Source: a virus
IMG/VR virus record: IMGVR_UViG_3300035698_008372
Location: 64,001-128,000 of that record
Direction: 5' to 3' (one strand)
DNA: 64,000 bases
In this document: in pieces, positions 8,446 through 53,812 of the stretch
How the letters are laid out: each line of letters opens with the position of its first letter
How positions within the stretch are numbered: position 1 is the first letter of the stretch
Notes under the pieces: model-generated
Databases searched by the model: none
Told to the model about the DNA's origin: nothing
Seen by the model: the letters and a program-made list of their open reading frames with translations, nothing else
Position numbers and translations under genes: made by a program

Positions 8446-9564
8446 ATGAGAGATAGAGACGAATTAGCCTCAATGATCGCGGATTCGATTAACAAATCAT
8501 CCGCCGAAAAATCCGCTTTCTTTTTAGATAGCGAAGAATCACCCACAGATGTAACGGATTGAATTTCCACTGGATCATCAGAACTAGATTTAGCGATATC
8601 AAATATGCCCAACGGGGGAATACCCGTGGGTAGAATCACTGAATTTAATGGATTGGAAGGTACTGGCAAAAGTCTTGTCGGTGCTCACATCTTGGCTAAC
8701 GCCCAGCGTAAAGGTGGGGTGGCCATATACATTGATACTGAAACTTCAGTTAGCCCACAATTTTTGACAGCCATTGGAGTGGATGTTAAGAACATGATTT
8801 ATGATCATGTGGAAACAGTTGAAGAGATTTTTGAACACATTGAAAATATTGTGACAAAGGTTAGGGAACAAGATAAGGGCAGACTGGTTACAATTCTTGT
8901 GGACAGTATAGCCGCAGCCAGTACAAAGGTTGAAATGGAAGCCGATTTTGATAAGGATGGTTGGGCAACAAGCAAAGCCATTATTATCTCAAAGGCTATG
9001 AGAAAAATCACACAAATGATTGGTAAACAACGTGTCGCATTGGTTTTCACAAATCAATTGAGGCAGAAGTTGGGTGCAATGTTTGGTGACCAATGGACTA
9101 CTTCTGGTGGAAAGGCATTGCCATTCCATGCATCAGTTAGAGTTAGATTAAAGAACGCTGGCCGAATAAAGGTTGGTACTGGTACAAAAGAACAGGTCGT
9201 TGGAATGAAAATTAAAGCACAGGTAATCAAGAATAGAATGGGTCCGCCTCTGAGGCAGGCCGAATTCAACCTAAGTTTCGCTTCTGGAATTGATGACATT
9301 GGGAGCTGGATAAGAATTTTATCCGCTCATAAGATTGTCAAACAGGCCGGAGCTTGGTACACCATCGAGTACGAGGATAAAGAAATAAAATTTCAGGCAA
9401 AGAAATTTGAAGAGGTTTTAGAGAAAAATCCCAAATTGGAAAAATATCTATACGATCAAATATGTGAAAAAACCATATTGAAATACAGAAATTCTCCAGA
9501 CGAGCCGGTGGTATTGGATGCCGAAGTGGAAGAAATTGAAGAGATGTTGGAAGACGACAGTTAA
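8446..9564 (+). CDS. recA: RecA/UvsX recombinase, with in-frame UGA(Trp) at 8560
   Basis: SD AGGAG + ATG 8446; reads PTDVTD*ISTGSSELDLAIS into GRITEFNGLEGTGKS, IDTE, VDSIAA, FTNQLR, TSGGKALPFHASVR. Confidence 0.93.
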
Positions 9565-9665
9565 TCTTCATCGGACTTGGGGCATTTTTGCTTTTTAGGT
9601 TGTTACTCCAAAATACATACATAAATATTAGAAGTTAAGAATGCCCCTTTTTTAGAAAGGTGTAA

Positions 9666-10739
9666 ATGAACAATAAAACATTACAACGGATACTGGATCA
9701 AGTTCAGAAGGAACATGACAATGCAGATGATCTGGAATATAATAGCAACGTGTTGATAGTCGATGGACTAAATACATTTATCAGGGCCTTTTCGGCCGTA
9801 CCCATGACAAATACAAATGGGGCTCATGTCGGTGGAATCATCGGATTTTTGAGGTCTATAGCATATACTGTCAAAACATTAAATCCCACTCGGCTGATAA
9901 TCACATTTGATGGCAAGGGTGGTTCGGTGCGCCGTAGAGAATTGTATCCAGAATACAAAGGAAAACGGAAAGTATCAAAATTAAATAGAGCGGATGCATT
10001 CAGTACCGCTGAGGACGAACATCAGTCGATGATGGAGCAGTTGAAAAAGACTGTTGATTATTTGGGGACACTTCCGTTATCACTGATTACGGTGGAGAAT
10101 ATTGAGGCTGATGACACAATGGCATATATTGCCAAGCAGGTTTTGACTGATAGTAAAATCACATTAATGAGCACTGACAAAGATTTTCTACAACTTGTAA
10201 ATGATAGAATATCGGTGTGGTCACCTACCAAAAAAATACTCTATACTCCAGAGGTAATCAGGGCTGAATATCAAATACCACCAAATAATTTCCTAGCATA
10301 TAGGATTATGGAAGGTGATGTATCTGATAATATTCCAGGTGTCGGTGGAGCCAAAATCAAAACAATCATAAAGAGATTCCCAGATGTATTGGATGATTCA
10401 AAGAAATTGAATGTTGATGATTTGATAGAATATGCTAAGGGTCAAGACACCAAATTGAAAGTGTATGACAATGTTATTAATAACAAAGAGCTATTGGAAT
10501 TGAATTGGAAATTGATGCAACTGGATGAGGTGGTTATTAGTAATACCGCCAAATTTCATATACTGAGTGTGGTCGATAGGGATCAACAAACCAAGTTTAA
10601 TAAATTACAATTTGAGAAAATGTTTATTAGAGACCAACTGCACCAATCCATACCCAATCTGGAAACATGGTTAAACCAGTCCTTTTTAACATTGGACAAA
10701 TTCGTGCGAGAACATAATGGGAAGAAAAAAGAAGTATAA
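9666..10739 (+). CDS. 5'-3' exonuclease / flap endonuclease (PolI N-terminal, T4 RNase H-like)
   Basis: IVDGLN, FDGKG, YPEYKG.R, EADD, STDKDFLQL, GDVSDNIPGV. Confidence 0.92.
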   Translation: MNNKTLQRILDQVQKEHDNADDLEYNSNVLIVDGLNTFIRAFSAVPMTNTNGAHVGGIIGFLRSIAYTVKTLNPTRLIITFDGKGGSVRRRELYPEYKGKRKVSKLNRADAFSTAEDEHQSMMEQLKKTVDYLGTLPLSLITVENIEADDTMAYIAKQVLTDSKITLMSTDKDFLQLVNDRISVWSPTKKILYTPEVIRAEYQIPPNNFLAYRIMEGDVSDNIPGVGGAKIKTIIKRFPDVLDDSKKLNVDDLIEYAKGQDTKLKVYDNVINNKELLELNWKLMQLDEVVISNTAKFHILSVVDRDQQTKFNKLQFEKMFIRDQLHQSIPNLETWLNQSFLTLDKFVREHNGKKKEV

Positions 10740-10896
10740 TACAGTAGAAGAACGTAAAGAGGCACAGAGGAAATGGCAAGCCGATCATTACGAACGCAAT
10801 AAAAAGGAAATATTGAAGAGGGCTAGAGATGCCTATCGCAAGAAAAAGATTGAAAAAGCCAAGCGCGAACGAATGAAAAAATTGTATGATGAATAG
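10717..10896 (+). CDS. small basic protein
   Basis: MGRKKKYNTVEERKEAQRKWQ...; 59 aa, below track cutoff. Confidence 0.55.
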   Translation: MGRKKKYNTVEERKEAQRKWQADHYERNKKEILKRARDAYRKKKIEKAKRERMKKLYDE

Positions 10897-10958
10897 GAAA
10901 AATAAATCAATATGTTACAAAATATATCAGCGTTTTTCGCCATATATACGATATCTAT

Positions 10959-11156
10959 ATGTACGGAAAAGCTTGATTAATTAAAGGGTTGGGATATTGG
11001 GTTGACTTTTATAGCCCATCAAAAAATATAGTGATCGAATACTATGAAAAAAAACATCTAAAACAAATAAAACGGGATGTGAGAAGAAAAATGGAAATTA
11101 TAAGTTATATGGATTGTGAATTTATAGAAATTAGAGAATGGGAAAATGGTAGATAG
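10959..11156 (+). pseudogene. remnant of a Vsr/DUF559-like homing endonuclease (UGA at 10974)
   Basis: LGYWVDFYSPSKNIVIEYYEKKH..RD.RRK.EII....CEFIEIRE resembles the C-terminus of ORF 21243-22082; N-terminal part missing. Confidence 0.65.
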
Positions 11157-12537: not shown

Positions 12538-12547
12538 GAGAGAATAA

Positions 12548-13711: not shown

Positions 13712-14458
13712 ATGTATGGGATAGAAGATTTCAATTTGGAAGATTTCAATTTAATTTCGATTATGGAAATAGTCGATGAAAATAAATATGTTCAAACGAT
13801 GGACATAGAGGTTGCGGACAAGCATCATTTCTTTGTACGAAATCCTGAATACTCGGATGAATGTATTGTATCACACAATACAGCCGAAATTGTATTTGGT
13901 GATCCTGAGAATCAGGAATATTTGGACTTAAAGGATTACGACGTGAATCCATATAGGGAAGAATTTGGGTGGACATCGAACAATTCTATATTTGCCGAAT
14001 TGGGCATGGATTATACTGATGCTTGTAAACGTGTTGTGAAAAATGGTGAACCGGGATTTGCATGGCTTGAGAATATGCAGGGTTACTCACGTATGAAGAG
14101 CGGTAAAGACTACAAAGATAGACGTGTAAAAGGTGGAAATCCATGTGTTGTTGGTGATTCAATTATTACTACTGATAGAGGTAGACTTAGAATGGATGAA
14201 TTAGTTGAACGTGTAAATTCAGGTGAAACCATAAAAGTTATGTCTTTTAATGAACAAACATTAACAACTGAATTTAATGTTATTACAAAAGCGTGGATGA
14301 GTAAAAAGGATGCTACTGTATTGACATTGGAAATTGAGGAAAATGACCAAATGTTTAAATTGACATGTACCCCCGACCATAAAATATATACAACTAATCG
14401 AGGATATGTTGAGGCTAATGATTTAACTGGGGAGGATGATATAAAAATAATTACATAA
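13712..14458 (+). CDS. nrdJ: RNR part 2: C-intein 1 (to 13879) + 88-aa extein + N-intein 2 (14144-14455)
   Basis: TMDIEV..KHHFF...VSHN|TAEIVFG...TSNNS...NGEPG...GGNP|CVVGDS...CTPDHKIYT; SD AGGAG before ATG 13712. Confidence 0.92.
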   Translation: MYGIEDFNLEDFNLISIMEIVDENKYVQTMDIEVADKHHFFVRNPEYSDECIVSHNTAEIVFGDPENQEYLDLKDYDVNPYREEFGWTSNNSIFAELGMDYTDACKRVVKNGEPGFAWLENMQGYSRMKSGKDYKDRRVKGGNPCVVGDSIITTDRGRLRMDELVERVNSGETIKVMSFNEQTLTTEFNVITKAWMSKKDATVLTLEIEENDQMFKLTCTPDHKIYTTNRGYVEANDLTGEDDIKIIT

Positions 14459-14526
14459 TTCGTTTGTATATGGTATTTATTTTTGATATTTATAATAAAG
14501 AAACACTCTATATAAAGGAATGAACT

Positions 14527-15582
14527 GTGAAAACATATTGTGAAAAAAAGAACGGAAAAATTAAATTTGGAGATACTAATCATATTAGTTACGTGGGTCA
14601 CTATACAAACAATAACAATAAAACATATTATTTGCGTAGCAAGATTGAATTCGTGGTGGCTAGATGATTAGATATAAAAAATCTTAAATTTTTATATGAA
14701 TGCAAAATATATATAATAAATTCAAAAAATTATAAACCCGATTTTTTCCACACTGTAAATGATAAAATCAGAACTATTATAGAAGTAAAACCAGATAAAC
14801 AAACGGCTCTGGAATATTATTCTAAATATAACGAGTATTTTAAGAATATAGGAATTCGGTATGTAGTTTTATGAGAAAAACACATACATCAATTAATACG
14901 TAAAAATAATTTACAAGATGAGGTACTAAATTGAATAGACTATAGCATCACGAATTATAAAGTTCCCGATATGAGAGGGAAAAATAATCCTAGATATGGA
15001 ATGAAAACATCAGCAACTACTAAAAAGAAGATAGGTGATAAGACCAGAGAAAGATGTAAGGATAATGAGTATATTGATAAATTGAGTACCTCTATTTCTA
15101 AGTTCTATAATACGGACATGGGACTAAAACGAAGAAATGAAATTTCAGAGTTAAGAAAACGTGAAAACGTAGAATTCTGGAAACGGAAAAATCATGATGA
15201 CCCACTTACTACTGCTATATGTAAAATATGTGGTGATTTATTTAGATATAGAGGTATTAGTGAAAGTGGTCGTGTAACTTGTAGAAAAAATGGATGTACT
15301 ACAAAATATAATAATAGTATTGGAATTCCTCGAAAACCATTATCTAAAAAATCAAGTATTAGCTCATATAAAACAAGACTGTTAAACGGTGGTAATAAAA
15401 TGAAATTAACTGAAAACTATAAAGATTGAAACGAGAAAATTAACATGTTAAAGAAAACGTATAATATTCCAATGACGTTTGGTATGAATGAAAATACCAT
15501 TGTCAAATATTTTGGAAATATAAACACCTATATAAAGGAGATAAAAAAATATGGGAAAACTAATAAGAACGATTTTACATAA
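14527..15582 (+). mobile_element. free-standing homing endonuclease (TnsA-like PD-(D/E)XK + NUMOD3-like), 4 in-frame UGA
   Basis: From GTG 14527: YYLRSKIE...YKPDFF...IIEVKP, then GKNNPRYGMKTSATTKKKIG; TGA at 14665, 14872, 14932, 15427; ends TAA 15582. Confidence 0.8.
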
Positions 15583-16767
15583 AACTGTGGAGGATGTATT
15601 CGATTTAACCGTCGATGCTGTCCATAATTTTATAGCCAATGGTATATTGGTACATAACTGCCTTAACTACTAAGTCTCGGGGCAGTATAAATTTCTCCTG
15701 ATTGACTTGGAAGGTGAGTATACACCGACAGGGCGCAAGGGTAAAGCCAGCGTGAGAGACTGAGCGGAGAAACTTCAAAATGAAGATGCGACAGTCCACC
15801 TTATGAATCGAAACTTCTGATACGATTTGTAAACAGCGAACAAAGTTTAGAATCCTATGAATTGTGTTGTCTAGTTGAAACATTTCCAGACAATCATACG
15901 AGCAAAGAAGATTATTTGCGAACATTGAAATATGCTTATCTTTATGCAAAGACAGTGACACTTGGAAAAACTCATTGGCCAGACACAAATAGGGTTATGC
16001 TGAGAAATCGTAGAATTGGTACATCGGTATCTGGTATTGCCCAATTCATTACCAATCGAGGTCTGGGTGTACTCAGGGATTGGTTGGAAAGTGGGTACGA
16101 TGAGATTAAGAAATGGGATGAGATGTATTCAGATTGGTTATGTATTCAGCCCAGTATAAAAATTACAAGTGTGAAACCTAGTGGGACAGTATCACTACTG
16201 GCCGGATCAACTCCAGGATTACATTATCCAGAGAGTAGGTTCTACATCAGGCGTGTACGACTGGCAAAAAGTAGTAAACTGATTACACCACTTGAAAACG
16301 CTGGATACAAAATAGAACCGGCTTATGGTTCTGAAGAAAGCACAGTTGTGGTGGAAATTCCCATTGATGAGGGTGATGGAATTAGGACAAAGAAGGACTT
16401 AACGATGTGGGAACAATTGGCCCTTGCGGCGTTTATGCAACGGCATTGGGCTGACAATGCTGTTAGTGCCACGATCACGTTTGATCCGGAAACCGAATCG
16501 GATCAACTCCCATTCGCTTTGAACTATTTTCAGTATCAATTAAAAGGCATTTCATTTCTACCTAGAGTGGAAAAGGGGGCCTATAGACAAATGCCGTATG
16601 AGGAAATCACTGAAAGTGAATATGATAATATGAAAACTAATCTAAAATATTTGAGTTTAATTCACATTGAAGGGGAAATGGCAAACCCAGAAAAATATTG
16701 TGGGAATGATACGTGTGAAATTGATGCCGAGTGGGCACAAGTTGAAGATGAACAGGATGAAAAATAA
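15551..16767 (+). CDS. nrdJ: RNR part 3: C-intein 2 (15551-15658) + C-terminal extein, interrupted by a group I intron
   Basis: MGKLIRT...VFDLTVDAVHNFIANGILVHN|CL^EQSLESYELCCLVE...RNRRIG...TSVKPSGTVS; C-terminal CGNDTC. Confidence 0.9.
15664..15836 (+). ncRNA. compact group I intron (173 nt, no ORF)
   Basis: 5' exon ends in U, intron ends in G. P1 ACTGCCT/GGGCAGT with U.G; P3 TTTCTCC/GGAGAAA; P7 GACTG/CAGTC; P8 CTTCA/TGAAG. Removal restores C-L-E-Q frame. Confidence 0.9.
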
Positions 16768-16817: not shown

Positions 16818-17258
16818 ATGTTAGTAAAGTTAAAAAGTTGGACAAGAGAGAAAGTTATTGAATGTGACAGTTACCATATTGAAAAAGTGGAGCATGGACA
16901 TAGATGACAAATAATGAGAAACGCCACACAAGGAGATGTTAATGGTCTCGTCCTTGACCAAGTAATGGAACATTGGTCAAATGGGGAAGATGTGCGGGTG
17001 TTTGTAACTGACAATGGTAAAAATGTGGAGTCATACAGATATACATGGACTAAGCCACCATGCGGTCCGCCGCAGGAAGGCTATGGTTCACGGGACATTG
17101 GGACGGTTGAGCCACGGTTTGACCACGATTTATCCAAGGACACATTGGCTTTTATAATCGGTGCAGTTGAAAAGTATGGAAATGATGCATCATATAGTGA
17201 GTCGCTTGTAGTGTATTTACAAGAGCGTCTTTTTGGTAAGGATGAAATAGCTAAATAA
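16818..17258 (+). CDS. hypothetical protein (UGA at 16905)
   Basis: SD AAGGAG + ATG 16818 in frame with the 16914 ORF across one TGA. Confidence 0.65.
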
Positions 17259-17816: not shown

Positions 17817-17889
17817 GCGGTTGAGGTGTAAGGGGATTTGCATGTCGGCTTTCCAGCCGGAGGAGTTGGTTCAAAACCTTCCAACCGCT
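17817..17889 (+). tRNA. atypical tRNA-Gly-like (UCC in a 6-nt loop, mismatched T-stem)
   Basis: GCGGTTG/CAACCGC acceptor, U73; TCGGC-TTTCCA-GCCGG; GGTTCAAAACC; A at position 8; no CCA. Confidence 0.7.
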
Positions 17890-17900
17890 CTATTACAAAT

Positions 17901-17973
17901 GCGATTGAGGTGTTCAAGGGGAGCACGTCGGTATTCCATATCGAAGGAGTGGGTTCGAATCCTGCCGATCGCT
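17901..17973 (+). tRNA. atypical tRNA-Gly(UCC)
   Basis: GCGATTG/CGATCGC, U73; TCGGT-ATTCCAT-ATCGA; GGTTCGAATCC; A8; no CCA. Confidence 0.85.
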
Positions 17974-17984
17974 CTATTAAAAAT

Positions 17985-18057
17985 GCGATTGAAGTGTAAC
18001 AGGTAAGCACGCCGACATACCATGTCGGAAGAGTGGGTTCGAGTCCTACTGATCGCT
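17985..18057 (+). tRNA. atypical tRNA-Gly(ACC)
   Basis: GCGATTG/TGATCGC, U73; CCGAC-ATACCAT-GTCGG; GGTTCGAGTCC; A8; no CCA. Confidence 0.85.
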
Positions 18058-18084
18058 CTATTAATGCAAGGAAAAAAATGTTAT

Positions 18085-19419: not shown

Positions 19420-21180
19420 ATTTATAAGTCAATTTATTTCGAAGCGGAAAAACAGAAGATTCATTTGTGGGATGATGACCGCGGCTATTTCACAATACCA
19501 TATAGACGTTATGGGTATATAAAAGATAGGGGCGGCACATATACTTCATTATATGGGGACAGGCTTAAGAAAATCCACAAGTGGGGCAAAGATTCCACTG
19601 GATTATTTGAGAGTGATGTACACCCTGAAACAAGAACATTAATTGATCTGTACACCAATGACGATGAACCATCAAAAGGTAACAAAACGATTATTATTGA
19701 TATTGAAGTCGAGGTCACAGATGGATTCCCAACTGCTACTTTGGCCGAGAATAAGGTTACGGCTATATCAATTTACGATTTTACGGATAAGAAATATTAT
19801 GGTTTGGTATTGGAAAATGGCAAGGGTATTATCAAGCCATCCACAACTCCAGAGCTTGACATTGAAGTGTTTGATATGGAAGTTGATTTGTTGAATAGAT
19901 TCATGCAGATATACCTACGCATAAAACCAACTATTATTACTGGTTGGAATGTGGATAGATTTGATGTAACATACCTATACAATAGAATGGCCGATCAGCT
20001 GGATGAAGATGTAGCCAATTGCTTGTCTCCAATCGGTGTGGTACATTGGAGTGATTTCAGGGGTAGCTACAGAATCGCTGGGGTTGCAACAATGGATTAC
20101 TTACAGTTGTATAAGAAATTTACATTTACGCAACAGGCTTCATACAGATTGGATGCGATTGCTGATTTCGAATTGGGTGAACGCAAAATTGAATATGATG
20201 GTACACTAAACGAATTATATGAAAATGACATTGAAAAATTTGTCCAATACAACATCCATGATGTTCGACTAATTGAGATGTTGGACAAGAAATTGAATTT
20301 TATAGAAATCGCTCGTGGTATTTGTCACTTGGGGCATGTTCCGTATGAAGATATTTACTATGACAGTAGATACCTAGAGGCTGCTATTCTTGTTTATCTG
20401 AAAAAATTGAACATCATCGCTCCGAATAAGCCCGAGCGTGAGGGTTGGAAGGATGAAATTGGCTTTGAGGGTGCTCACGTTCAAAAGCCCAAGAAGGGTC
20501 GTCATAATTGGGTATATGATTTGGATTTAACATCAATGTATCCAAGCATCATTATGTCGTTGAACATTTCTCCAGAGACAAAAATAGGTAAAATAGATGG
20601 GTGGGATTCCAATAAATTTGTGAAAAAAACCCCAAAAACCTATACTGTCAAATATGGTACAACCGCACTCCAATCCATGGATCAGGATGAACTACAGGTA
20701 TTTTTTGATACCAATCATGTGTCGGTATCGGCCAATGGGATATTGTACAAAACTGATAGGGATGGCCTAATCGCGTCACTCCTGAAAAAGTGGTTCGACG
20801 AACGTGTTGAATTCAGAAAATTGGCTAAGAAGTTTGCCGACGCGGGTGATAACGAGAAATATGATTATTTCAATAGACGACAACATATCCAGAAGATTCT
20901 CCTTAACTCACTTTTTGGGGCACTCGGTTTGCAGGGTTGGAGATTCCATGACGTAGACAACGCCCTTGCAGTTACATCGACGGGGGTAGAATTAATTCGA
21001 TTTTCCAAAACCATTGCAAACCATTATTACAATACTGAGCTTGGTAAAGAAATTGAACTTGAAATGGAAGATGGGTCTATCAGAAAATTATATGAAAATT
21101 GGCCAATCCATGTAAAAAGGGGTGGTAAAAAAGTTCAAATTTTAGCCAAAAATCTCAAAATAAATGATGATATTCTCTAA
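19420..21180 (+). CDS. family B DNA polymerase, N-terminal part (probable ATT start)
   Basis: ExoI DIEV, TGWNVDRFD, YNIHDV, motif A DLTSMYPS, motif B KILLNSLFG; ends in an intein-like tail. Confidence 0.93.
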   Translation: MYKSIYFEAEKQKIHLWDDDRGYFTIPYRRYGYIKDRGGTYTSLYGDRLKKIHKWGKDSTGLFESDVHPETRTLIDLYTNDDEPSKGNKTIIIDIEVEVTDGFPTATLAENKVTAISIYDFTDKKYYGLVLENGKGIIKPSTTPELDIEVFDMEVDLLNRFMQIYLRIKPTIITGWNVDRFDVTYLYNRMADQLDEDVANCLSPIGVVHWSDFRGSYRIAGVATMDYLQLYKKFTFTQQASYRLDAIADFELGERKIEYDGTLNELYENDIEKFVQYNIHDVRLIEMLDKKLNFIEIARGICHLGHVPYEDIYYDSRYLEAAILVYLKKLNIIAPNKPEREGWKDEIGFEGAHVQKPKKGRHNWVYDLDLTSMYPSIIMSLNISPETKIGKIDGWDSNKFVKKTPKTYTVKYGTTALQSMDQDELQVFFDTNHVSVSANGILYKTDRDGLIASLLKKWFDERVEFRKLAKKFADAGDNEKYDYFNRRQHIQKILLNSLFGALGLQGWRFHDVDNALAVTSTGVELIRFSKTIANHYYNTELGKEIELEMEDGSIRKLYENWPIHVKRGGKKVQILAKNLKINDDIL

Positions 21181-21242
21181 GTTTATACTATTTATATACA
21201 GACACAATGTATCAATGTATAAAATATAAATTGGAGAGTAAG

Positions 21243-22082
21243 ATGAAAAAGGGGTCAGCGAGAACATTACAATATTGATTGGATAAAGGGTATAAAGGGG
21301 AAGAAGCAGAAAAAATGCGTATGAGCAGAATTCCAGGTACTATAGAATATTTTACTATATTTAAGGGGCTCCCATTGAATGAGGCCGAAATTGCGAAAGA
21401 AAATTATAACAAAAGGTCCGTTCCGACATTGGAAAATATGATACGCAAGTATGGGGAAACTGAAGGTGAAATTAGGTGGGGTGCATATCGTGAAAAACAG
21501 GCAAAATCCAATACATTTGAATATAAGCGTGATAAGTATGGTTGGACATTGGAACAATTCGATGCTTATAACAAATCAAGGGGATTGTCTGGTAAAGACA
21601 ATGGCAATTATGGGTCGAGCTATTATGAAGCTTGGGTTAAAAAGTATGGAAAAATAAAGGCCGATGAAATGAATAATGCTTTAGGTGAATTGAAAGCCAA
21701 AGGGGGGAAATCTCAAAAAGGTGTACCCAAATCATTTGTGGCTAGAAAAAATATGAGTATAGCTGCAAAGAAAAGGATAATGGATCAGGGTACTTACATT
21801 TCATATAATCCAAATTCAATTCCGATAATTGAAAAATATGGAAAAGAAAATGGATATAAATTTCAACATGCTGAAAATGGCGGCGAATATTTGGTTAGGG
21901 AAGTTTACTATTGGGTAGATGGGTATGATCATGAAAATAATGTGGTGGTTGAATATGATGAAAAATACCATGAAATGCAAACGGAAAAAGATAAAATTAG
22001 GCAACAACATATAATGGATGTGTTGGGGTGCAAATTTATAAGAATTAAAGAATCTGGAGAAATTAAGATTTATGAAAATTAA
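21243..22082 (+). mobile_element. free-standing Vsr/DUF559-like homing endonuclease splitting polB (UGA at 21276)
   Basis: QY*LDKGY..EEA, KYG...G repeats, FQHAENGGEY...YWVDGYD.ENNVVVEYDEKYH...D..RQ..I...LGCKFIRI. Confidence 0.82.
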
Positions 22083-22993
22083 AAATATAAGGGAATCAAA
22101 AGGTGTCGATGTGGATCATGTTATCTACATCGACACGTAGTGCGGATTCACTATTTATTTCGTCAACCGCGATGGTGAGCAAACGATATGGAAACAAGAA
22201 ATTCAGTGATGTCATGCTGTCACAGTACATCTTGACAATAGCTGGTGACACCCAAAAATTCATAAATAACTCGTATGACTATTTTGCCAAGAAATTCTGT
22301 AATCTTCCCGGTGCACACCGGTTTGAGATTAAACAGGAATTGATTGCAAAGTCAGCTGTATTTGTCAATGCTAAGAAAAATTATGGGTTGCGTGTTATCA
22401 ATGACAATGGTGTGAAAGTGGATAAAAATGTGTACAAAGGCTTGGCCGTAGTTCGCAGTGATTTCCCACAATCATACAGAAAATTGTTAGGTGAGGTGCT
22501 AGGTGATGTTCTAGCGGATGTTCCAAAAGATAAGATCGACGATCGTATTATTGAATACAAAAACAACATGAGATACTTGAATGTCGAAGATATCGCCAAA
22601 CCAACTGGGGTTAAGAATATCAAAAAATATTTGGTTCCACCTGGAGCGGGTGGGGGATTTTCTACTTGGAAGTCTCGTTGTCCTATCCATGTCAAATCAT
22701 CTATCATATACAATGATTTGATTAAGCATTTTGACAAACAAAAGAAGTACGCATTGATAGGGGCCGGCGACAAGGTCAAATGGGTGTACTTAAAGAAAAA
22801 TAATTTAGGATTAGAAAGTGTGGCTTATACAGGTCACGAAGACCCAAAGGAAATTATGGATTTCATATATAATTTTGTGGATAGGGATAAGATGTACGAT
22901 AGTATATTTTTGAACAAAATCACATCAATATATTCTGCCATGGACTGGTCGTTGCCCATAGATAAAAAGTTCTCGATGGACAGATTTTTTTAA
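22072..22993 (+). CDS. family B DNA polymerase, C-terminal part; 7-nt coding gap (22138-22144) inside YIDT^DS
   Basis: ATG 22072 MKIKNIRESKGVDVDHVIYIDT-TAG; DSLF resumes at 22145 in the +1 frame; later AKKNY, KGLAVVRSD, PIHVK, GDKVKWVYL, C-terminal SMDRFF. Confidence 0.9.
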
Positions 22994-30307: not shown

Positions 30308-30341
30308 TTCATTGATATATATAAATATACAGGAGATAGAA

Positions 30342-30539
30342 ATGGATAAAGACAACACAAAATTAACAACGGTAAAGCTGATCGACGATTGATATAGGCA
30401 GTTCAAATTGCATGCTATCAATGACGATTTCACTTTGCAAAAACTTGTAAATCGAACCATACATAGATATGTAAATGACGATGTATATAGAAATGATATG
30501 TTAAATTATGATATGCCATTGAGTGGCAGTAAATATTAA
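30342..30539 (+). CDS. small RHH-like protein (UGA at 30390)
   Basis: SD AGGAG; KLTTVKLIDD*YRQFK...FTLQKLVNRTIH. Confidence 0.6.
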
Positions 30540-30552: not shown

Positions 30553-32148
30553 ATGGCTGACAAAGTTATAAAGAATTGAAATGTCGGAGACATAAGAAAC
30601 GGGACAGAGGTTTTAGCACCAGAACAGAGAAAAACACTATTAATATTATCGGATGATCTGAGAATGTCGTCTGGGGTAGGGACAATGACTAGAGAAATAA
30701 CTATGGGTATTTGCCATAGATTTAATATCGTTCAAGTTGGTGGAGCTATAAACCATCCAGATAAAAATAAAGTGATTGATTTAAATCAAAGCTTTCAAGA
30801 CGGAACGGGTGTCCCAGAGGCACATTGCAAGGTGTATCCAGTTGATGGATATGGAAATTCGGATGTCGTTAGACAAATAATGAATACTGACAAACCCGAT
30901 GCCATACTACACTTCACAGACCCTAGATTTTGGGGTTGGTTGTATCAAATGGAACATGAGATTCGTCAGAATATTCCAATTTTTTACTACGCTTTGTGGG
31001 ATGATTTGCCAGTACCAATGTACAATAAAAGATTTTATGAATCATGTGACTTGATTATGTCAATTTCAAAACAATCACATTACATCCATAGATCGGCATT
31101 AATGGAAACTGACACCAAAATAATTGACATGACCATAAATGAGGTACTAAATGAATATCCAGACGGAAACAATATGGAGACCAGAGTTAGTTATGTTCCG
31201 CATGGTATCAATGAAAATGAATTCTATCCCATAGAAGAGGGTCATCCGGAATGGGATGATATGAGGAAATTTAGGAGTGAAGTCACTACAGGGACTCTTG
31301 GAAATATCGAATTTATATTCCTATACAATAGTAGAAATATTAGAAGAAAAATGACAACCGATTTGATATATGCATTTAAAGTATTTTGTGACGCTCTGCC
31401 CCAAGGTGAAGCCGACAAATGCTTATTGTTATTACATACACAGCCGGTTGACGAAAACGGAACGGATTTGCCAGCTGTAATCAGTGAATTGGTCGATAAC
31501 TATAATATCGTTTTTTCACATCAAAAATTAGATACTAAGCACATGAACTACCTATATAATATATCGGATGTCACTGCACTAATTTCTTCAAATGAAGGAT
31601 TTGGATTGGGCACAGCTGAATCATTAATGGCGGGTACTCCAATTCTGGTTAATACCACTGGAGGACTTCAAGATCAAGTTGGGTTCAAAAGAGAAGATGG
31701 TGAATATGTCGGAGTAGAAGATTATAGAGATGGTTGGGGTTCCAATCATGATGGTCGATATACTGAGCACGCGGAATGGTGTAAACCAGTCTGGCCTGTT
31801 AGTAGGGCTATAGTGGGTTCGGTTCCAACTCCATATATTGCAGACGACCGATGTGATTGGCAAGATGTGGCAATCAGAATGTTGGAATGGTATGGCACAC
31901 CAATAGACGACCGCAAAGCTTCTGGGAAGTCTGGTCGTGAGTGGTTACTTTCAGAAAAGACGGGGATGTCTGCTTCAGAAATGGCTCGACGATTTGTGGT
32001 TCACATGGATGAAACTTTTGAAAATTGGATGCCGAGAAAGAGGTTTTCAATGATTAAAGTTGAAATGCCGGAAAAAGTTATGAAGGAAAATGGCTTGAAA
32101 CTCACCAAAAAAATTGAACATGGAAATGTTTACATACCAAATAAATAG
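30553..32148 (+). CDS. GT-B (GT4-like) glycosyltransferase (UGA at 30577)
   Basis: SD GGAGG + ATG 30553; LLILSDDLRMSSGVG lies upstream of the track start; RNIRRK, NEGFGLGTAE. Confidence 0.88.
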
Positions 32149-33696: not shown

Positions 33697-33993
33697 GTGT
33701 CCGATGTAATGACTGGAACATACGAAGAACTGAGGCATTGGTGATACGACGTAATGAAAATTATACCAAGAAATCAGAATATGGATTATGATAAATATCC
33801 ATATAGGGAATTGACTGACAAAATGACATTCAAAGATCAGGTCGACGCTGGAATAGGCGCGTGTAGGAAACTTGATCAAGACCCCGAATTTGCGTTGTAC
33901 TATATGAAATATGATAGGCGGTCAAAAAAGAATGCAGATGAAATTGATGAGATAGAACTGATAGTTATAAACCAACGTGTAAAAATAATATAG
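33697..33993 (+). CDS. hypothetical protein (UGA at 33742)
   Basis: SD GGAGGGG + GTG 33697 in frame with the 33754 ORF. Confidence 0.5.
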
Positions 33994-35155: not shown

Positions 35156-35779
35156 ATGATATCATTTTCAATTTTATCACATAATGAAGGTGAAGATTTA
35201 GGTAAATTATTACATCAGATTGCCACCAAAAGTGATTTGGATTATGAGTTTGAAATTGTCATAGTGGATGATTTTAGCACAGATAGTAGGACAATGGAAA
35301 TATTAGAAGAATATGGTAATGTGGATAATGTGCATGTATTCCAAAGGAAATTGGATATGGATTTTGCCGGACAGAAGAATTTTGCCAATTCAAAATGTGT
35401 GGGAGAATACATATTTTCAGTCGATGCCGATGAATATTTCCCTGACAATCTTATTGCAAATCTGTATGAATTGGTTAAAATGAATGGTGATATTGATTTA
35501 ATGTGAGTCCCCAGGATTAATCTTGTGGGGGGTATTACAAAAGAACATATTGCCAAATGGGGTTGGAATGTGAATGCACAGGGTTGAATAAATTTTCCCG
35601 ATTATCAGGCCCGCCTTTTTAAGAATTCTCCAGACATAAAATGGAAAAATAAGGTTCACGAAGTTATCGAGGGCGCGATGACTATAAGCCGACTACCAAC
35701 GGAACAAGATTGGTGTTTGGTACATAACAAACATATAGATAAACAAGAAAAACAGAATGAATTTTATGAGACCATTTAA
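35156..35779 (+). CDS. GT2 glycosyltransferase (UGA at 35504, 35585)
   Basis: IVDDFSTD, FAGQKN, VDADE, LM*VPRIN, QG*INFPDYQARL, WKNKVHE. Confidence 0.88.
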
Positions 35780-37063: not shown

Positions 37064-37843
37064 ATGAAGCGATTAATATTGGGAGATGGATTACTTGGTT
37101 CTGAAATCGCGAAACTCACTGGGTGGGATTATATTAGTAGAAAAAAGGATGGACTTGATTTTGCAGATATTAATACTTATTCTGAAATTTTAAATGGGTA
37201 TGACGATGTAATAAATTGTATAGCTCATTGCAATACTTATGATGAAAATATTGATATTCATTGGAATGTCAATTATAAGGGTGTTGTGAACTTGGTTGAT
37301 TATATTATGAATAAGGGGATTAAATTGGTACACATATCCACAGATTATATTTATTCAAATTCACAATCAAATGCATCCGAAACAAGTGTTCCAGTACATT
37401 GTGAAAATTGGTATGGTTATACCAAATTGTTATCAGACGCGTATGTGCAACTTAAAATGCCCAACTATCTATTAATTAGGGGGACACATAAAGAAACTCC
37501 ATTTGAATATAATGGGGCGTATATAAATCAAATAGGCAATTTTGATTATATTGATGTTGTAGCTAAGATGATAGTGGATTTGATAACAGCTGAAGAAACT
37601 GGCATTTACAACGTGGGAACGGAATTGAAAACCATGTATGATTTGGCTAAAAAAACGAAATCGAATGTAATGCCAATAAATGAGAAATTTCATCATACCA
37701 TGCCATCCGATGTTAGCATGGATTTAACTAAATTGAATAATTTTTTGGACGACAATAAAAAACTAACAATTCTACTAAGTGTTGTCATGTTATATCATTC
37801 TGAGGCGGATGAAGGAGAAAATCAACGGGCGGGTGACTTTTAG
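37064..37843 (+). CDS. RmlD-like NDP-sugar reductase (probably continues by -1 shift near 37760)
   Basis: LGDGLLG, INCIA, HISTDYIY, YGYTKL. Confidence 0.85.
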   Translation: MKRLILGDGLLGSEIAKLTGWDYISRKKDGLDFADINTYSEILNGYDDVINCIAHCNTYDENIDIHWNVNYKGVVNLVDYIMNKGIKLVHISTDYIYSNSQSNASETSVPVHCENWYGYTKLLSDAYVQLKMPNYLLIRGTHKETPFEYNGAYINQIGNFDYIDVVAKMIVDLITAEETGIYNVGTELKTMYDLAKKTKSNVMPINEKFHHTMPSDVSMDLTKLNNFLDDNKKLTILLSVVMLYHSEADEGENQRAGDF

Positions 37844-38529
37844 AATCACTTAAATTATTAAAATATATTGATAAAATCCATAAATCAGTCGATGGGGGAA
37901 TTAATTTTGATATTATTATAGTTAATAATATTTCTGAAAATACTCTTACAAATGATCTTTTGTCTGAAATGGATAATCAATCCACTAAAAATGGCAAAAT
38001 TATAGTTGTTTCCAGAGAAAATATTGGAATTTCGTTTGGTGGATTTAATTACGCGTTTCAAAAATTTAAAGATGATTATGATTACTGATTTTTCACGGAA
38101 GATGATATTATTTTGAATAAGCCCATGTGGTATAAAGACGCTTATGATGAATTAAATAAAAATATGGATTCTGATAATAATATTGCATATATTACTCCCA
38201 ATGGCATTAATAGGGATCACAGTAGTAACCATGTGCTTAACGGGTGTGGTTTGACTCATAAAAAATTTTTAGATGAAATTTGTTTGATTAATAATGGGGA
38301 GTTGCCGCATGGGAAATTCAAGGGGAAGGACGGGTTTGTCCCAGATAAATGGGTTGCTATTAATACCGAAATAGAATTTACCAACATATTGATTAGAATG
38401 GGATATGACTTTAAGGATATTTTATATGACAATGAGAAAAAAACCAGATATTCAGATTCTTGGTACACTGCTGTAAATAAAATTGGAATACGTGGAGGAA
38501 ACCATGGGCAAAAAGATAATTATAAATAA
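37759..38529 (+). CDS. GT-A-like domain with 4 UGA, no own start codon
   Basis: Open frame after TAA 37756: CCHVISF*GG*RR...G*LL...FDIIIVNN...RENIGISFGGFNYAF...DY*FFTEDD; TGA at 37801, 37810, 37834, 38086. Confidence 0.7.
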
Positions 38530-41349: not shown

Positions 41350-42127
41350 TATAGTATTTATTCCAAATATAGATGTTGGTGATAATAGGAGCAACCCATA
41401 CTCCTATTCCATCAAAAGCTGGGAAAAGTGGTGTGCCAAACATGATTGTGAATTGGTTATTTTGGATCAGTTATTATTCCCCGTTGAAGAAATTAAAATT
41501 ACATGGCAGCGATGGTATGTGTTTGATATTCTTGAGGCCAATAATATGAAATTGGGTAAGGATGATCAGGTGGCACTAGTTGACGCTGATATGGTGGTAC
41601 ATCCAGATTGCCCCAACTTTTTTGAATATACGGATATGAAATGGGCTGGGGTATTGAACAACGGCTCTTATGAATGGGTTGTTAGGAGCATCAATGGGTA
41701 TGGTGATTTGATGTTTGACAATGACCGTATTCATCCTTGGGAATATATAAACAACGGGTTGGTCATATTCAATAATAAACACAAGAAATTCGTCAAATCC
41801 ATTACAGATTATTACTGGGATAATCAACCAGAAATTATTGCCAGTTATGATAAAATCAAGTGTAGCACTGACCAAACCATTATAAATTATTTGCGGGTTT
41901 TGGGTGGGATTGAAACTACTTATTTACAAGACAGATTCAACTTGCAGGATTTACATAGCAAGCAGTTATTGTACCATGACCCATCAAATTGGTGGGGTGA
42001 TTCAATAAGTAATTTATTACAATCTGGATATGTATTTCATATAAACGCTATACCTTCAAATAGATTGAATAGGACAGCCGGATACTGGATTAAACGGTTA
42101 TACAAGGAGATGTACCCCAATGATTAA
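41342..42127 (+). CDS. GT8-like glycosyltransferase
   Basis: LVDAD, YINNG, DQT..NY. Confidence 0.7.
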   Translation: MSNIVFIPNIDVGDNRSNPYSYSIKSWEKWCAKHDCELVILDQLLFPVEEIKITWQRWYVFDILEANNMKLGKDDQVALVDADMVVHPDCPNFFEYTDMKWAGVLNNGSYEWVVRSINGYGDLMFDNDRIHPWEYINNGLVIFNNKHKKFVKSITDYYWDNQPEIIASYDKIKCSTDQTIINYLRVLGGIETTYLQDRFNLQDLHSKQLLYHDPSNWWGDSISNLLQSGYVFHINAIPSNRLNRTAGYWIKRLYKEMYPND

Positions 42128-43064
42128 TGTGGCATTTTTCACAGAAAACGGATTCGTAGGAGAAGTTCCTAGAAATCACAGTAACATGCGAACGGAATAT
42201 TCATGAATGGTTGCCACTAGAGCAACACATTACAACATTCACGGGCCGTATGATCCAATTGCAACCTATGATTTGGGCATAGTAATTGTACCCAAAAACA
42301 ATCCACAGGTGGATATGGACAGGATACGGGCAGTATGTGATAAGGTGACCATAATGCAAGAGGGCCCATCAACATTTTGGCAGGATTATTCAGTGCCAAA
42401 TCAAATCCATTTCTTCAATACATTGACTGAAGCCGATTTCCTATTATGTCATAACAAACAGGACCAATTATACTACAATGGGTTGACAGGCAAGGATACG
42501 TTTGTCATGAAGTCTCTAATGATACCCGACGCGATTATGACAACGAGCCCGCGGGAACCTACCAATTCGGTCATGTTGGGGGGCAATTGGACAAGTTGGT
42601 ATTCGGGTGTGGATTCCTATATACTGGGACAAGTATTCACTCCAGAGTATGAACTGTATGCTCCATCTATGGGTAGGAAAAAAGAAGAAGAAAATGAAAT
42701 CGAAGATGTAAATTATTTCGACTATATGATGTGGCAGGAATGGATTGATTCCATAAAAAATATGAAGGTTGGGATTCACATGATGAGAATATTTGCGGCA
42801 GGGACCTTCGCATTGAATTGCTCATATTGGGGCATACCTTGTATTGGGTATAAGGGGTTGGATACACAAGAAACGTGCCACCCGTTGACATCGGTTGATT
42901 TGGGTGATATGGAAAAGGCTGGGCACATTGCCGAAAAATTGAAAAATGATAAAGGGTTTTATGATCTGTGCTCTATGGCGACTTTAAAGCGATACGAGAA
43001 ACACTATTCAGAAGCCGCATGGTTGAAAGACTGGAAAAGTATAGAGGAGTACACAAATGGATAA
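42120..43064 (+). CDS. GT-B-like protein (UGA at 42204)
   Basis: MINVAFFTE...NMRTEYS*MVA...AAGTFALNCSYWGIPCIG. Confidence 0.7.
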
Positions 43065-44748: not shown

Positions 44749-45618
44749 ATGAATAGGAAAGCTATAGTAACTGGGGGTGCTGGGTTCGTGGGCACCAATC
44801 TAATTAAGAGGTTGGTAAGCGATAATTGGAAAGTGGTATCATTGGACAACTACTGTATTGGTACTGAATCCAATCATGTAGATGACAAGAGGGTGTCATA
44901 TTATAATGTAGATTTGACTGAAACATCGGATTATGATTTTTTTATGAATGATGCCGATATCCTGTTTCATCTAGCGGCAATACCAAGAATCCAACCATCA
45001 TTGAAACGGCCCAAGACCACATTGGACAACAACCATTTATCAACTGTCAATGTTTTGGAATATGCCAGAAAAAATAACATCAAAGTCATATTTTCATCTT
45101 CATCATCAGTGGTTGGGAATGTGTTTGCAAACCCATATACGGTGTCAAAGCATAATGGTGAAAATCTATGCGGGATGTACAAACATGTTTATGGATTGGA
45201 GATAGCGATGGCTAGGTTCTATAATGTGTATGGACCTCACATGATAGGAGATTCAGAATTTGGCACTGTGCTTGGAATATGATTGGAGCGGTACAAAAAA
45301 GGTATGCCGCTACTGGTAACCGGGGATGGTACACAGCGGCGTGATTATACCCATGTGGAAGATATTGTTGATGGGCTGATATTAATGGCGGATAATACAG
45401 AAATATGTGGTACATATTCTCCAATTGAACTCGGCAGGGGTGAGAATTATTCACTAAACGAATTGGTCAGATTATTTGACTGTGCTGAAGTAGAATATGT
45501 GGACAGACCAAAGGGAGAAATGGCACATACTTTGCGGTATGATAAAGAGAATGAAATCAATGGTTTGGGTTGGAATCCGCAAAGAAATGTAAAAGATTTT
45601 ATAAAAAACATGAAATAA
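44749..45618 (+). CDS. NAD-dependent epimerase/dehydratase (UGA at 45280 joins two track ORFs)
   Basis: TGGAGFVG, YTVSK, RFYNVYGP, VLGI*LE...GDGTQRRDYTHVEDI. Confidence 0.93.
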
Positions 45619-47563: not shown

Positions 47564-47564
47564 T

Positions 47565-50905: not shown

Positions 50906-51136
50906 ATGATATTCTATTTAATACCTAAAGACCCATTGAAAGCTGACTGAGAATATGTCACAATTGGTGAGGAAAGCTTCGGTACATTCTATGCCGAAAA
51001 AGGATTGGATGCTCTCGTTAAATCCATTGACAGGGGGTTTGAAGATCAAATTTCCATAAAGGATGAAAAGGGCAAAGTGTGGGATATTCAGAAATTTTTG
51101 GATATATTGGAAACTTTAAAAATACGAAAAAATTAA
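50906..51136 (+). CDS. hypothetical protein (UGA at 50948)
   Basis: TAATG-coupled; fills the gap exactly if TGA is read through. Confidence 0.65.
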
Positions 51137-51145
51137 AGATTTCGC

Positions 51146-51174
51146 TTGACTTTGTCGTTTTTATCTTGTATCTT
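51146..51174 (+). promoter_or_regulatory. sigma70-type early promoter
   Basis: TTGACT-17-TATCTT, core identical to the 6286 copy. Confidence 0.85.
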
Positions 51175-51862
51175 GTGATATGAAACGAAAGGAAACGAAA
51201 TGAAAATACAAGTTTCGACGGGTAATAACAACACCCAAACGAGCACAGATGAGAACACTACACAAATTCAGTTTGGCAAAACTGTATTATTTTTAGTGTC
51301 CGTCGCATTGACAATTGGAGCAGGGGCCACATTGGGCTTCGCCGCATCCATTCTCTTGCTGACATGGTCCCCAATGGGGCTCTTATTGACATCATTGGTG
51401 GCATTTTTACATCTCATTATGGTATCGGCAAGTATTGTCACGATTTATTTAGTACCGTACCACTGGGTAGCATGGTACAGATTAATCAGGGGCATTTAAT
51501 ATGGGATTGATTGTTTTTGTTGTAATATCTCATGCTGGGGGAGAAGACGAGATTATGTCAATCCATTATACCAAACCTGCGGCCAAAAAGAATCTGAAAA
51601 AGATTAAGAAATGGCCCATTTTTACGGAAGATGCTGGATTTAGTATTCAGGAGCATGAAGTAACTTAACACATAACCGAAAGGAATGCAATGAAACGCAT
51701 GAACTTTAAATGGCGTATTGAACTACGCCGAACCGAAGCCCTCGAGCGAGAAGAGGACAGAGCTAAGAGGAGCACTGCAAAGCAGATTGCCCTCATCAAA
51801 ACCCGTAGGGGCGATTCCACAAAGGAATTGGCACGACTACAGGAGCCCGTGGTCATAGACTA

Positions 51863-52324
51863 ATGGACATCGGCAGTAAATCTAAATGGCCATCGCGCCA
51901 ATTATCTAATTTTGCACTATCCCCATTCATAGTCGATGGGGTTTCGTGTGCTAGTATGGAAGGATTCATACAGGCGTTGAAACGGAAAAGCCACGACATT
52001 CAGATACATGGGTGTACATTGGTTGGAATAGGTGCAAAGAGATGGGGATCGGGTCCTAAATGGTGGAACCGACCTCCAGAAAAACAATTATGGTGGAAAG
52101 GTCAGGGGTTCCCCGCTCATGGCCGGACCCACCTCGAATTGATTGAATTGGCTCTGAGAGCTAAATTCACACAGCATAGTGGTAGTAAACGGGCTTTACT
52201 GGCCACCGGGGATGCAAAATTAACACATAGTATTGGTAGAAACTCCAATACATCATTAAAAAAATCCGATTTTTGCAGACTACTTATGCAAATTCGGACA
52301 GAACTGCAAAAAGAGGAGCAGTAG
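51863..52324 (+). CDS. NADAR-like protein (T4 gp30.3 family)
   Basis: LSNFA..PF.VDGV.CASMEGFIQALK, LLATG...LTHSIG. Confidence 0.75.
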   Translation: MDIGSKSKWPSRQLSNFALSPFIVDGVSCASMEGFIQALKRKSHDIQIHGCTLVGIGAKRWGSGPKWWNRPPEKQLWWKGQGFPAHGRTHLELIELALRAKFTQHSGSKRALLATGDAKLTHSIGRNSNTSLKKSDFCRLLMQIRTELQKEEQ

Positions 52325-52518
52325 AATGCCACAGTATGATTTGGAAGATTTCGAAGATTTGGAAGAAGTATCCACAGAGAAAATTAAACGGAGTGGAGCC
52401 AGAAAACCCAAGAAATCTTGGAAAGAAATCAATAAGGCGAAAGAACGTAAATTGGCTAAAAAGGTACTCACTAAAAAACGTAAAAATAGTGAGAAAATGA
52501 TGAATATTGAGGAAGACT

Positions 52519-53049
52519 ATGAATAAAACTGATACGGGTGAGGCTGCCTTTTGGATACTTTTAATTATTATGGCATTAATAATAGGATTCACTAATAGTT
52601 GTGAAAACCCCATATCGGACAACTACAATATTTCAGTCGATCCTCGATTGGATCAGGATTCAAGTGGATATTTTCATTTGACATTGGATAGGAACAGTTG
52701 GCAAACAATTCACCGATTTACAGGTCAGGTGTACCATGATGGTACTGCCGTAGAAAATGTTCGAGTAGAGTGGGAATCCGATAAGAACTGGATTTTGTCA
52801 GATACTATTGGTTATATTTCAACTTATAGTTATACGAGTGACCTAATATATATTGCCATTGATACTAGCTACATATACTTTGGACAGGAACAATTCATTG
52901 TGCCGATTATTAATCCAGTATCGTATTCAAATGCAGACGGTGAATTCAATATCATGTTCGCACCCGTCTTATCACAACGCGGTGATACCGCAACTGTATT
53001 CATGAATTCACTTGATAATGGGTTACAATTTAAAGTAGTATTGGATTGA
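52519..53049 (+). CDS. putative lipoprotein with Ig-like beta domain
   Basis: Hydrophobic leader then FTNSC; beta-rich body; ends on TGA. Confidence 0.55.
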   Translation: MNKTDTGEAAFWILLIIMALIIGFTNSCENPISDNYNISVDPRLDQDSSGYFHLTLDRNSWQTIHRFTGQVYHDGTAVENVRVEWESDKNWILSDTIGYISTYSYTSDLIYIAIDTSYIYFGQEQFIVPIINPVSYSNADGEFNIMFAPVLSQRGDTATVFMNSLDNGLQFKVVLD

Positions 53050-53428
53050 AATGAAGCAATACAAACCAAATGGGCACTATTCAATATCAAGCCCAGACGT
53101 GGACAGACACCTTTCAAACATCTTAAAGGGTCAACTCATAACTGATATTAGTCGCATGATGTCGGGTCAAAAAGATACGGAAATTGACATGCACAATCCA
53201 TCTATAGTGGATGTGATGTTAATTGTATCCAAATTAATCATTGACAGGGATCGGCACGACATTCCAATCCCAGAAGATATGGACCAGACTTATGGTAAAT
53301 TGTTATCTAAAATTGTCACAAATACCATAAAAACTCTGGATAAACAAACGTAAAATTCTCCAAAATGATATTTATATACGAAAATATGTATATCAACGCA
53401 GTATAAATTGAGAATTGGAGAACCTTAG

Positions 53429-53812
53429 ATGGCACTAACAGCACGTGATAAGGAAATCATAAAAGAAATAGCTTCAAATATTAAACAGGGTTCTGCTGAA
53501 GATTCAACTTCTAGGTGAGAACTAATAGCCGAAATAAAGGCCCAGACCACTATCAACACCCAAATATTCGATGAAATTAGGGCAGTTGGTACAAATATGG
53601 GCAATATAGCAACATCCCTAAACAATGGGATTACCGAGAAAATCAATACAACCGCCGAAAAGGTTGAAAACATTGAATTCGAAGTTAAAGACAAAGACGG
53701 GGCCTTAAATAAATTGTATTCTAAACTCAATTATTTCTGGATTCCGTGAGTTGGTTCTATAATTGGTATCATACTGATTATAATCAAAATATCAATGGGA
53801 TCGCCCATATAG
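53429..53812 (+). CDS. coiled-coil protein with C-terminal TM helix (holin/XhlA-like?), UGA at 53516 and 53747
   Basis: SD GGAG + ATG 53429; 127 aa when UGA=Trp; FWIP*VGSIIGIILIIIKI; TATTTATA motif upstream. Confidence 0.65.

Follow-up and report, generated by a model that had tools for sequence, protein, structure and literature searches.

How can TGA encode tryptophan (Trp) in some genes of a phage genome and terminate others? This question is raised by a stretch of 64,000 nucleotides (nt; hereafter the window) that comprises bases 64001-128000 of one 140,003-bp phage contig from IMG/VR, and for which a reading of the sequence alone had proposed that TGA stands for Trp in a central block and for stop in early genes. 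Positions given below are those of the window unless marked as contig. The contig lacks terminal repeats, is 71% complete according to CheckV and carries nearly all of its coding on the + strand; Pfam searches identified a T4-type portal protein with an intein, a T4-type large terminase (TerL) and a RecA-family recombinase. In TerL comparisons, the cultured phages that come closest are Microcystis phage Mel-JY01 (55%) and Flavobacterium phage vB_FspM_immuto (50%). The DNA thus far described stems from a large T4-like environmental phage, and six related contigs of about 75% DNA identity are syntenic with the 140-kb contig. Analysis of these sequences reveals two classes of TGA usage, which are tied to clusters of genes delimited by a repeated promoter. 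The interpretation that we consider fairly likely is that the host uses the standard code, that TGA is a stop in early genes and a Trp codon in the other modules, and that decoding switches in the middle of the infection.

Tryptophan columns and the reach of recoding

The TerL gene, located upstream of the window, contains three TGAs, all of which fall on alignment columns that are TGG in 21-24 relatives. TerL relatives of about 60% identity, which use the standard code, read TGG throughout the 13 conserved Trp columns, and three relatives of 88% identity contain four TGAs each. In comparisons with the related contigs of about 75% DNA identity, sense TGA is exchanged solely with TGG, either codon replacing the other (14 TGG-to-TGA and 6 TGA-to-TGG changes among about 250 Trp columns). 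Within the window, the TGA at 14932 aligns with a Trp that is invariant in 7 of 7 homologues of a homing endonuclease, and the column of the TGA at 8560 contains F in 19, W (encoded by TGG) in 4 and H in 1 of the RecA relatives, with TGA in the four closest ones. No GGN codon was found at the aligned TGA columns of TerL, RecA, the homing endonuclease or the related contigs, these columns being TGG or F/W/Y. The proposal that TGA means Trp, and not glycine (Gly) or selenocysteine, is thus borne out by the TGG columns of TerL, the aromatic RecA column, the invariant Trp at 14932 and the alternation with TGG; as judged from codon alignments, TGA is shown to be read as Trp in the non-early genes.

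That the in-frame TGAs are assembly errors, pseudogene stops, or codons for Gly (as in code 25) or selenocysteine is extremely improbable, and these readings were set aside on the codon alignments. A Gly reading might draw on the fact that the only tRNAs of the contig are three tRNA-Gly-type genes, but the anticodons of these are UCC and ACC, not UCA, and the aligned codon of the relatives is TGG. Membership among the code 25 phages of Gracilibacteria/Absconditabacteria, in which TGA encodes Gly, was rejected because the columns are not Gly in homologues. The same TGAs recur in independent assemblies from other samples, so that read errors are excluded, and the TGA-containing frames are never interrupted by TAA or TAG.

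Recoding is not limited to a central block, as had been suggested: every non-early module of the contig is recoded, including large genes upstream of the window, namely those for a 1192-amino acid (aa) NUDIX-domain protein, TerL, the portal protein and two proteins of 957 and 848 aa. The portal gene contains five TGAs, four of them in its intein (contig 8.4-9.6 kb), and the other large virion genes have 4 or 5 TGAs each. Altogether, Trp is encoded by TGA in about 10% of cases, the GC content being 37%. The suggestion that recoding extends to recombination and sugar genes holds, with sense TGAs in the RecA-family, glycosyltransferase and epimerase genes, although such a reach is not new (cf. 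Borges et al., bioRxiv 10.1101/2021.08.26.457843). Gene callers in common use would split about 30 genes of the contig unless a mixed code is permitted. Among the open reading frames (ORFs) of the contig, the one with the top coding score, located upstream of the window at contig 20709-21869, contains no TGA; it probably encodes the major capsid protein, an indication that the late gene with the strongest expression avoids TGA.

Promoter clusters and two classes of TGA usage

A 29-nt motif, TTGACTTTGTC-N6-ATCTTGTATCTT, recurs about 22 times along the contig, always on the + strand. It comprises a -35 hexamer TTGACT, a 17-nt spacer and a -10 hexamer TATCTT; a ribosome-binding site and an ATG come after every copy. 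The exact motif was also detected in 14 stretches of related IMG/VR contigs, and in related recoded contigs it lies between tRNA genes. The conservation extends well beyond both hexamers, which suggests an additional recognition factor. Small genes delimited by promoter copies form four clusters (contig 24.8-34.1, 43.4-48.3, 63.2-71.6 and 115.1-140 kb), which in the window correspond to the segments from its start to 7.6 kb and from 51.1 kb to its end. Because the motif resembles a host sigma70 promoter, these clusters are labelled early, and their members are predicted to be early genes. The T4-type late promoter TATAAATA was not enriched (12 found, 15 expected).

True TGA ends are lacking between 7.6 and 51.1 kb, as had been claimed on a smaller set: of the 56 genes, 43 end in TAA and 13 in TAG, and just three ORFs nominally end in TGA, staying open for a further 50-111 codons. 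The 25 non-early ORFs of the contig that nominally end in TGA reach the next TAA or TAG at a median of 212 codons, whereas the median is 5 codons for the 19 TGA-ended ORFs of the early clusters, with 8-10 for TAA/TAG controls (non-early vs early, Mann-Whitney p = 2e-7). Non-early genes have about 45 sense TGAs to 404 TGGs, early genes about 5 to 274 (Fisher p = 7e-6), and a true TGA end was counted for about 15 of the 123 early genes but for none of the 101 non-early ones (p = 2e-4). The final 8 codons of the 123 early genes hold 13 TGAs, a density about 30 times that of the gene interiors, where about 5 occur in 12,600 codons.

A complete 216-kb relative with the standard code, G011, whose TerL Trp columns read TGG, served as the control. 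In this genome, TGA ends 70 of the 252 genes (28%), including 25 of the 92 ORFs of at least 300 aa, the next TAA or TAG follows at a median of 4.5 codons, and the read-through signature is absent. When genes are called under code 4, deep internal TGAs occur in 27 of 102 long ORFs here, which exceeds chance, and in 6 of 174 in G011. It follows from this comparison that, outside the early clusters, TGA ends were lost in this lineage and sense TGAs were gained.

The TGA ends listed in the sequence-only reading at 2525, 53047, 55375, 55640, 57137, 58004, 62470 and 63108 each close a coding ORF, with a change of coding frame at that point; a further one, 63682, ends a 62-aa ORF that could not be confirmed as a gene. 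Had TGA been a sense codon throughout, homologues of early genes should run past it, and at 2525 they do not: the homologue in the syntenic relative G006 stops at the same TGA (after ...EEDDD), and the next gene begins in an overlapping frame. A search with the 54883-55374 protein in related loci found no homologue, and the DNA of 51-64 kb matched related contigs at the promoter element only; as no relatives of the early genes were found there, 2525 is the only early end comparable with a homologue. Behind the TGA at 58004 come the promoter, AGAGAGG as the ribosome-binding site and, at 58055, an ATG at which a Pfam DUF7336 domain begins exactly. The region 57677-58234 holds two genes in the same frame, which a Trp reading of the TGA would join, over promoter and ribosome-binding site, into a 185-aa product. 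Behind the ends of 62062-62472 and 62772-63110, the next TAA or TAG comes 2 and 4 codons on.

These early ends bear on the alternative that the host is a code 4 organism (TGA = Trp, no release factor 2 (RF2)) and that the phage is uniformly code 4, the early stops then being Trp codons followed by short tails. Such a reading would agree with the failure to find a decoder in the phage (see below) and with an in-frame TAA or TAG behind every early TGA end. Yet the concentration of TGA at early ORF ends and its near-absence inside are unlike a sense codon, the join at 58004 would cross a promoter and a ribosome-binding site, and a TGA share of about 10% among Trp codons is low for 37% GC, given that TGA predominates for Trp in AT-rich code 4 organisms. 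Together with the standard-code TerL relatives and the nearest cultured relatives, which infect Flavobacterium and Microcystis, these observations make a native code 4 host very unlikely.

Another alternative is that UGA is decoded constitutively, in part, and by either host or phage over the whole infection, without a switch in time; early genes would tolerate read-through and would lack internal TGA as young, fast-turnover imports from standard-code phages. It is consistent with the median of 5 codons to TAA or TAG behind early TGA ends, owing to which either reading gives nearly the same protein (cf. Pfennig, Lomsadze and Borodovsky; Mgcod; bioRxiv 10.1101/2022.06.29.495998), with the finding of two genes with internal TGA within early clusters, and with the lack of homologues of most early genes in the related contigs. 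We nevertheless regard it as distinctly unlikely: it does not account for the loss of TGA ends in non-early genes (0 of about 101, against 28% in G011), and the TGA load of the portal gene and the other large virion genes calls for efficient decoding. The short distance behind TGA ends is shared by the standard-code G011 and is no sign of selected back-ups; back-up stops of this kind were rejected as a separate proposition (p = 0.07).

Individual TGA sites in the window

The sequence-only reading listed 22 in-frame TGAs in the window. All 22 are TGA in frames open with respect to TAA and TAG, and about 18 of them lie in real genes (Table 1). Those at 37801, 37810 and 37834 are off-frame in the 3' end of the gene 37064-37843 and belong to no gene, the coding score being negative in their frame and positive in that of the gene; 10974 is doubtful as a sense TGA, with a weak coding score and no start codon. 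Support for the other 18 sites comes from homologues, close relatives, or a Shine-Dalgarno start and/or coding score.

Several sites lie within conserved domains. The RecA-family product matches Pfam RecA (2e-56) over residues 13-283, spanning 8560; the GT2 product matches Glycos_transf_2 over residues 6-165, spanning 35504 and 35585, both of which are TGG in G006; and the epimerase product matches Epimerase (1.5e-46) over residues 6-217, across codon 178 (45280), for which G006 has TGG or TGA depending on the alignment. In the homing-endonuclease-like gene, 14665 is W in 4 of 7 homologues and 14872 is W in the two closest; past 15427 the frame remains open and coding, and a TGA at 14521 is possibly 5' of the true start. 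Close relatives retain the TGA at 30390 (G001 and G006), 38086 (G006) and 30577, with mostly synonymous flanking changes on both sides of 30390 and synonymous changes on either side of 38086; the ATG at 30553 is preceded by a strong GGAGG. For the probable sense TGA at 16905, the ATG at 16818 is preceded by GGAG and the alternative ATG at 16914 is not. The ATG at 42120 has an upstream GGAG and an 8-nt overlap with the end of the preceding gene, and the alignment with the relative breaks there. For 50948, the coding score is positive 5' of the TGA, with no alternative start nearby.

Two regions, 14160-15850 (31% GC, five TGAs) and 21040-22110, are insertions that carry the homing-endonuclease-like gene and the gene 21207-22082, respectively, and are missing from the syntenic G006; the Pfam DUF559 match of the latter product is weak. 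Together with the portal intein, these mobile endonuclease elements account for about one fifth of the sense TGAs overall. Compared with TGG, sense TGAs are skewed towards the N-terminus (p = 0.01), a signal that we treat as weak because wrongly called starts would mimic it.

The gene 53429-53812 has GGAG before its ATG and a coding score of +29.6 in frame (-54 and -46 in the other frames), and the hydrophobic C-terminal segment of its product runs on beyond 53747. PHROGs and Pfam searches gave no match for this product, its neighbours or six further TGA-containing genes without assigned function. It may be a late-acting membrane protein, perhaps involved in lysis, that is gated by TGA.

Table 1. 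Features of the window (all positions are window coordinates)
Feature	Position	Strand	Remarks
Further copies of the early promoter	starts 1519, 4370, 6286, 54048, 58003, 60950	+	29 nt each
Early gene	1814..2527	+	TGA end 2525; ATG of next gene overlaps stop (ATGATGATTGA)
RecA-family recombinase gene	8446..9564	+	sense TGA 8560, codon 39
Homing-endonuclease-like gene	14464..15582	+	NUMOD3/TnsA-N matches; sense TGAs 14665, 14872, 14932, 15427
Gene without assigned function	16818..17258	+	probable sense TGA 16905
Three tandem tRNA-Gly-type genes	17817..18058	+	ARAGORN and Infernal; sequence read
DUF559/endonuclease-like gene	21207..22082	+	possible sense TGA 21276; start uncertain, weaker case
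Small gene	30312..30539	+	sense TGA 30390
GT4-family glycosyltransferase	30553..32148	+	Pfam Glycos_transf_1; sense TGA 30577, codon 9
Small gene	33697..33993	+	sense TGA 33742; TGG there in G001/G006
GT2-family glycosyltransferase	35156..35779	+	sense TGAs 35504, 35585
Gene without assigned function	37960..38529	+	sense TGA 38086
Gene without assigned function	42120..43064	+	probable sense TGA 42204
NAD-dependent epimerase/dehydratase	44749..45618	+	sense TGA 45280
Weaker promoter copy	start 46331	+	motif match
Small gene	50906..51136	+	probable sense TGA 50948; last gene ahead of early promoter
Conserved early promoter TTGACTTTGTC-N6-ATCTTGTATCTT	51146..51174	+	motif match
Early gene	52507..53049	+	TGA end 53047; next ATG 1 nt on; coding frame shifts after TGA
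Tail-anchored membrane protein gene, 127 aa	53429..53812	+	sense TGAs 53516, 53747; in early-promoter unit
Two overlapping early genes	54883-55377, 55361-55642	+	both TGA-ended; TAA/TAG one codon later each
Early gene	56828-57139	+	TGA in ATGA overlap
Early gene	57198-57419	+	ends TGATAG
Early gene	57677..58006	+	TGA end 58004, inside -35 hexamer TTGACT of next promoter
Early gene, DUF7448	62062-62472	+	TGA end; Pfam DUF7448 (1.6e-31) complete before TGA
Early gene	62772-63110	+	TGA end

Decoding of UGA and comparison with known recoded phages

The three tRNA-Gly-type genes of the contig are unable to read UGA: the first has a 6-nt anticodon loop, UUUCCA, the others have the anticodons UCC and ACC, and all three show the GlyRS identity features G1-C72, C2-G71, G3-C70 and U73. 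The first one, with two U.U mismatches in the T stem, was missed by ARAGORN. The statement that no tRNA(UCA) lies in the window is correct, although it carries less weight than claimed given that the contig is only about 71% complete. The search was carried beyond the window and included domain searches for RF-1, class Ib aminoacyl-tRNA synthetases (tryptophanyl-tRNA synthetase, TrpRS), the TilS PP-loop and CDA-type deaminases; no tRNA(UCA) and no RF1/RF2, TrpRS, TilS-type or cytidine-deaminase domain was detected in the 71% complete contig or in the related contigs G005, G007, G008 and G009. A hand scan for a UCA anticodon stem-loop plus T-loop gave a single match, which is not a tRNA, and ARAGORN in intron mode made implausible calls only, none with UCA. 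Two tRNA-like sequences in G008/G009 were missed by ARAGORN, and neither carries UCA.

Additional contigs were found by searching IMG/VR with the promoter motif. G007 and G008 (L208, L193, L192, L188, L189) overlap with 100% identity and form a 64-kb piece with 46 tRNAs and a transfer-messenger RNA (tmRNA); G009 (L190, L191), which comes from the same sample as the syntenic G006, has 31 tRNAs and a tmRNA. Both arrays cover all 20 amino acids, the tmRNA tags being GTQVQYAVAA and GTNYAYPVAA, and these contigs contain the same promoter among the tRNAs, together with clearly recoded long ORFs. They probably represent the counterpart of the section missing from the 140-kb contig, but could not be joined to it, having no overlap with either of its ends or with a 9-kb extension in G005. 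They encode tRNA-Trp(CCA) and no tRNA(UCA). The tRNA-Trp(CCA) of G009 is canonical, with a U11-A24 pair in the D stem, and that of G008 is 83 nt long, with an additional hairpin in the variable region. The Hirsh suppressor is the E. coli tRNA-Trp with the G24A change, in which tRNA-Trp(CCA) decodes UGA as a near-cognate, and natural UGA read-through occurs in Bacillus subtilis. The G009 tRNA thus resembles the Hirsh suppressor in having U11-A24, the state that the Hirsh mutation creates, again without a UCA tRNA, and differs in that tRNA-Trp(CCA) was found in related contigs, not in the 140-kb contig. Because U11-A24 is common in natural tRNA-Trp, this pair is a lead only and no evidence of suppressor activity.

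Under a switch in decoding, the small genes behind the approximately 22 sigma70-type promoter copies would be translated first, while TGA terminates, and would therefore avoid internal TGA and be free to end in it. The other modules, which lack TGA ends and include recombination, replication-associated homing endonucleases, sugar/DNA-modification enzymes, packaging and virion genes, would yield full-length protein only after UGA comes to be decoded as Trp. Our best guess for the decoder is that an early phage function would weaken termination by RF2, such that tRNA-Trp, possibly the phage lineage's own tRNA-Trp(CCA), would read UGA; alternatively, a tRNA(UCA) could be encoded in the approximately 29% of the genome outside the contig. 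The specific version in which RF2 is neutralised and a near-cognate tRNA-Trp(CCA) reads UGA without any UCA tRNA is a tentative proposal, unlikely as it stands; the tRNA in question may be the lineage's copy in the 46-tRNA array, transcribed from the same early promoters. If this route is correct, the meaning of the codon would be switched by altered termination and not by an added decoder. Since the basis is codon statistics, we infer the switch and the host code, along with the timing and the decoder; a standard-code host is suggested by the TGA-ended early genes and by the hosts of the nearest cultured relatives.

Several observations weigh against a switch in decoding. The label "early" was assigned from promoter sequence; the gene 53429-53812, with two sense TGAs, belongs to the unit begun by the promoter at 51146, and a second TGA-containing gene (contig 138122-138481) is also inside an early cluster. 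Early genes turn over fast, and the missing internal TGAs could partly reflect recent import from standard-code phages rather than selection, with just 13 early Trp columns comparable with relatives, too few to decide. That none of the decoder candidates named above was found counts on the same side.

Multi-code genomes reportedly include Phage 2 of Ivanova 2014 and crAss-like phages. In gut phages, TGA-to-Trp and TAG-to-Gln recoding is concentrated in structural and lysis genes, with replication genes "variably encoded in alternative code"; there are close standard-code relatives, a mid-infection switch has been modelled, a suppressor tRNA was detected in only 35% of the code 4 genomes, and the stop codon was proposed to be depleted ahead of recoding (Borges et al.). 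The phage described here resembles the code 4 Agate and Jade clades of that study in that TGA aligns with Trp, recoding is mostly outside early genes and standard-code relatives exist, and also in the proposed switch and in the lack of a detectable suppressor tRNA, which is shared by many of those genomes. It differs in belonging to a T4-like myovirus lineage and not to a gut phage clade, in the sparseness of recoding (about 10% of Trp codons), in the interleaving of early clusters with recoded modules, in retaining TGA as a common early stop, contrary to the proposed prior depletion, and in the near-complete tRNA set of related contigs, which includes tRNA-Trp(CCA) and lacks UCA. The characteristic features of recoded phages are found here, namely TGA on Trp columns, its enrichment outside early genes and standard-code relatives, and an own tRNA(UCA), release factor or TrpRS, which such phages carry often but not always, is not, within the contigs searched. 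Phage genomes with blocks of differing codes, with few code 11/code 4 examples, and with an early block that is "dual-coded" and gives nearly the same proteins in either code have been described as well (Pfennig et al.). The likeness to these is that one gene set needs the alternative code and early genes give almost the same protein either way; the difference is that at least four early clusters under one repeated promoter take the place of two large blocks.

Block-wise dual coding has already been published, and the present phage is a clean new example of it, with no new principle. With it, block-wise TGA-to-Trp recoding reaches beyond the gut phage clades into a T4-like lineage that was encountered only in metagenome contigs of IMG/VR. 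Given that a single repeated promoter marks the early class, the two codon usages can be counted cleanly, with a complete standard-code relative as the control. With a near-complete tRNA set and no visible UGA decoder, this lineage is a good system in which to address how the code switches, a question left open by Borges et al.

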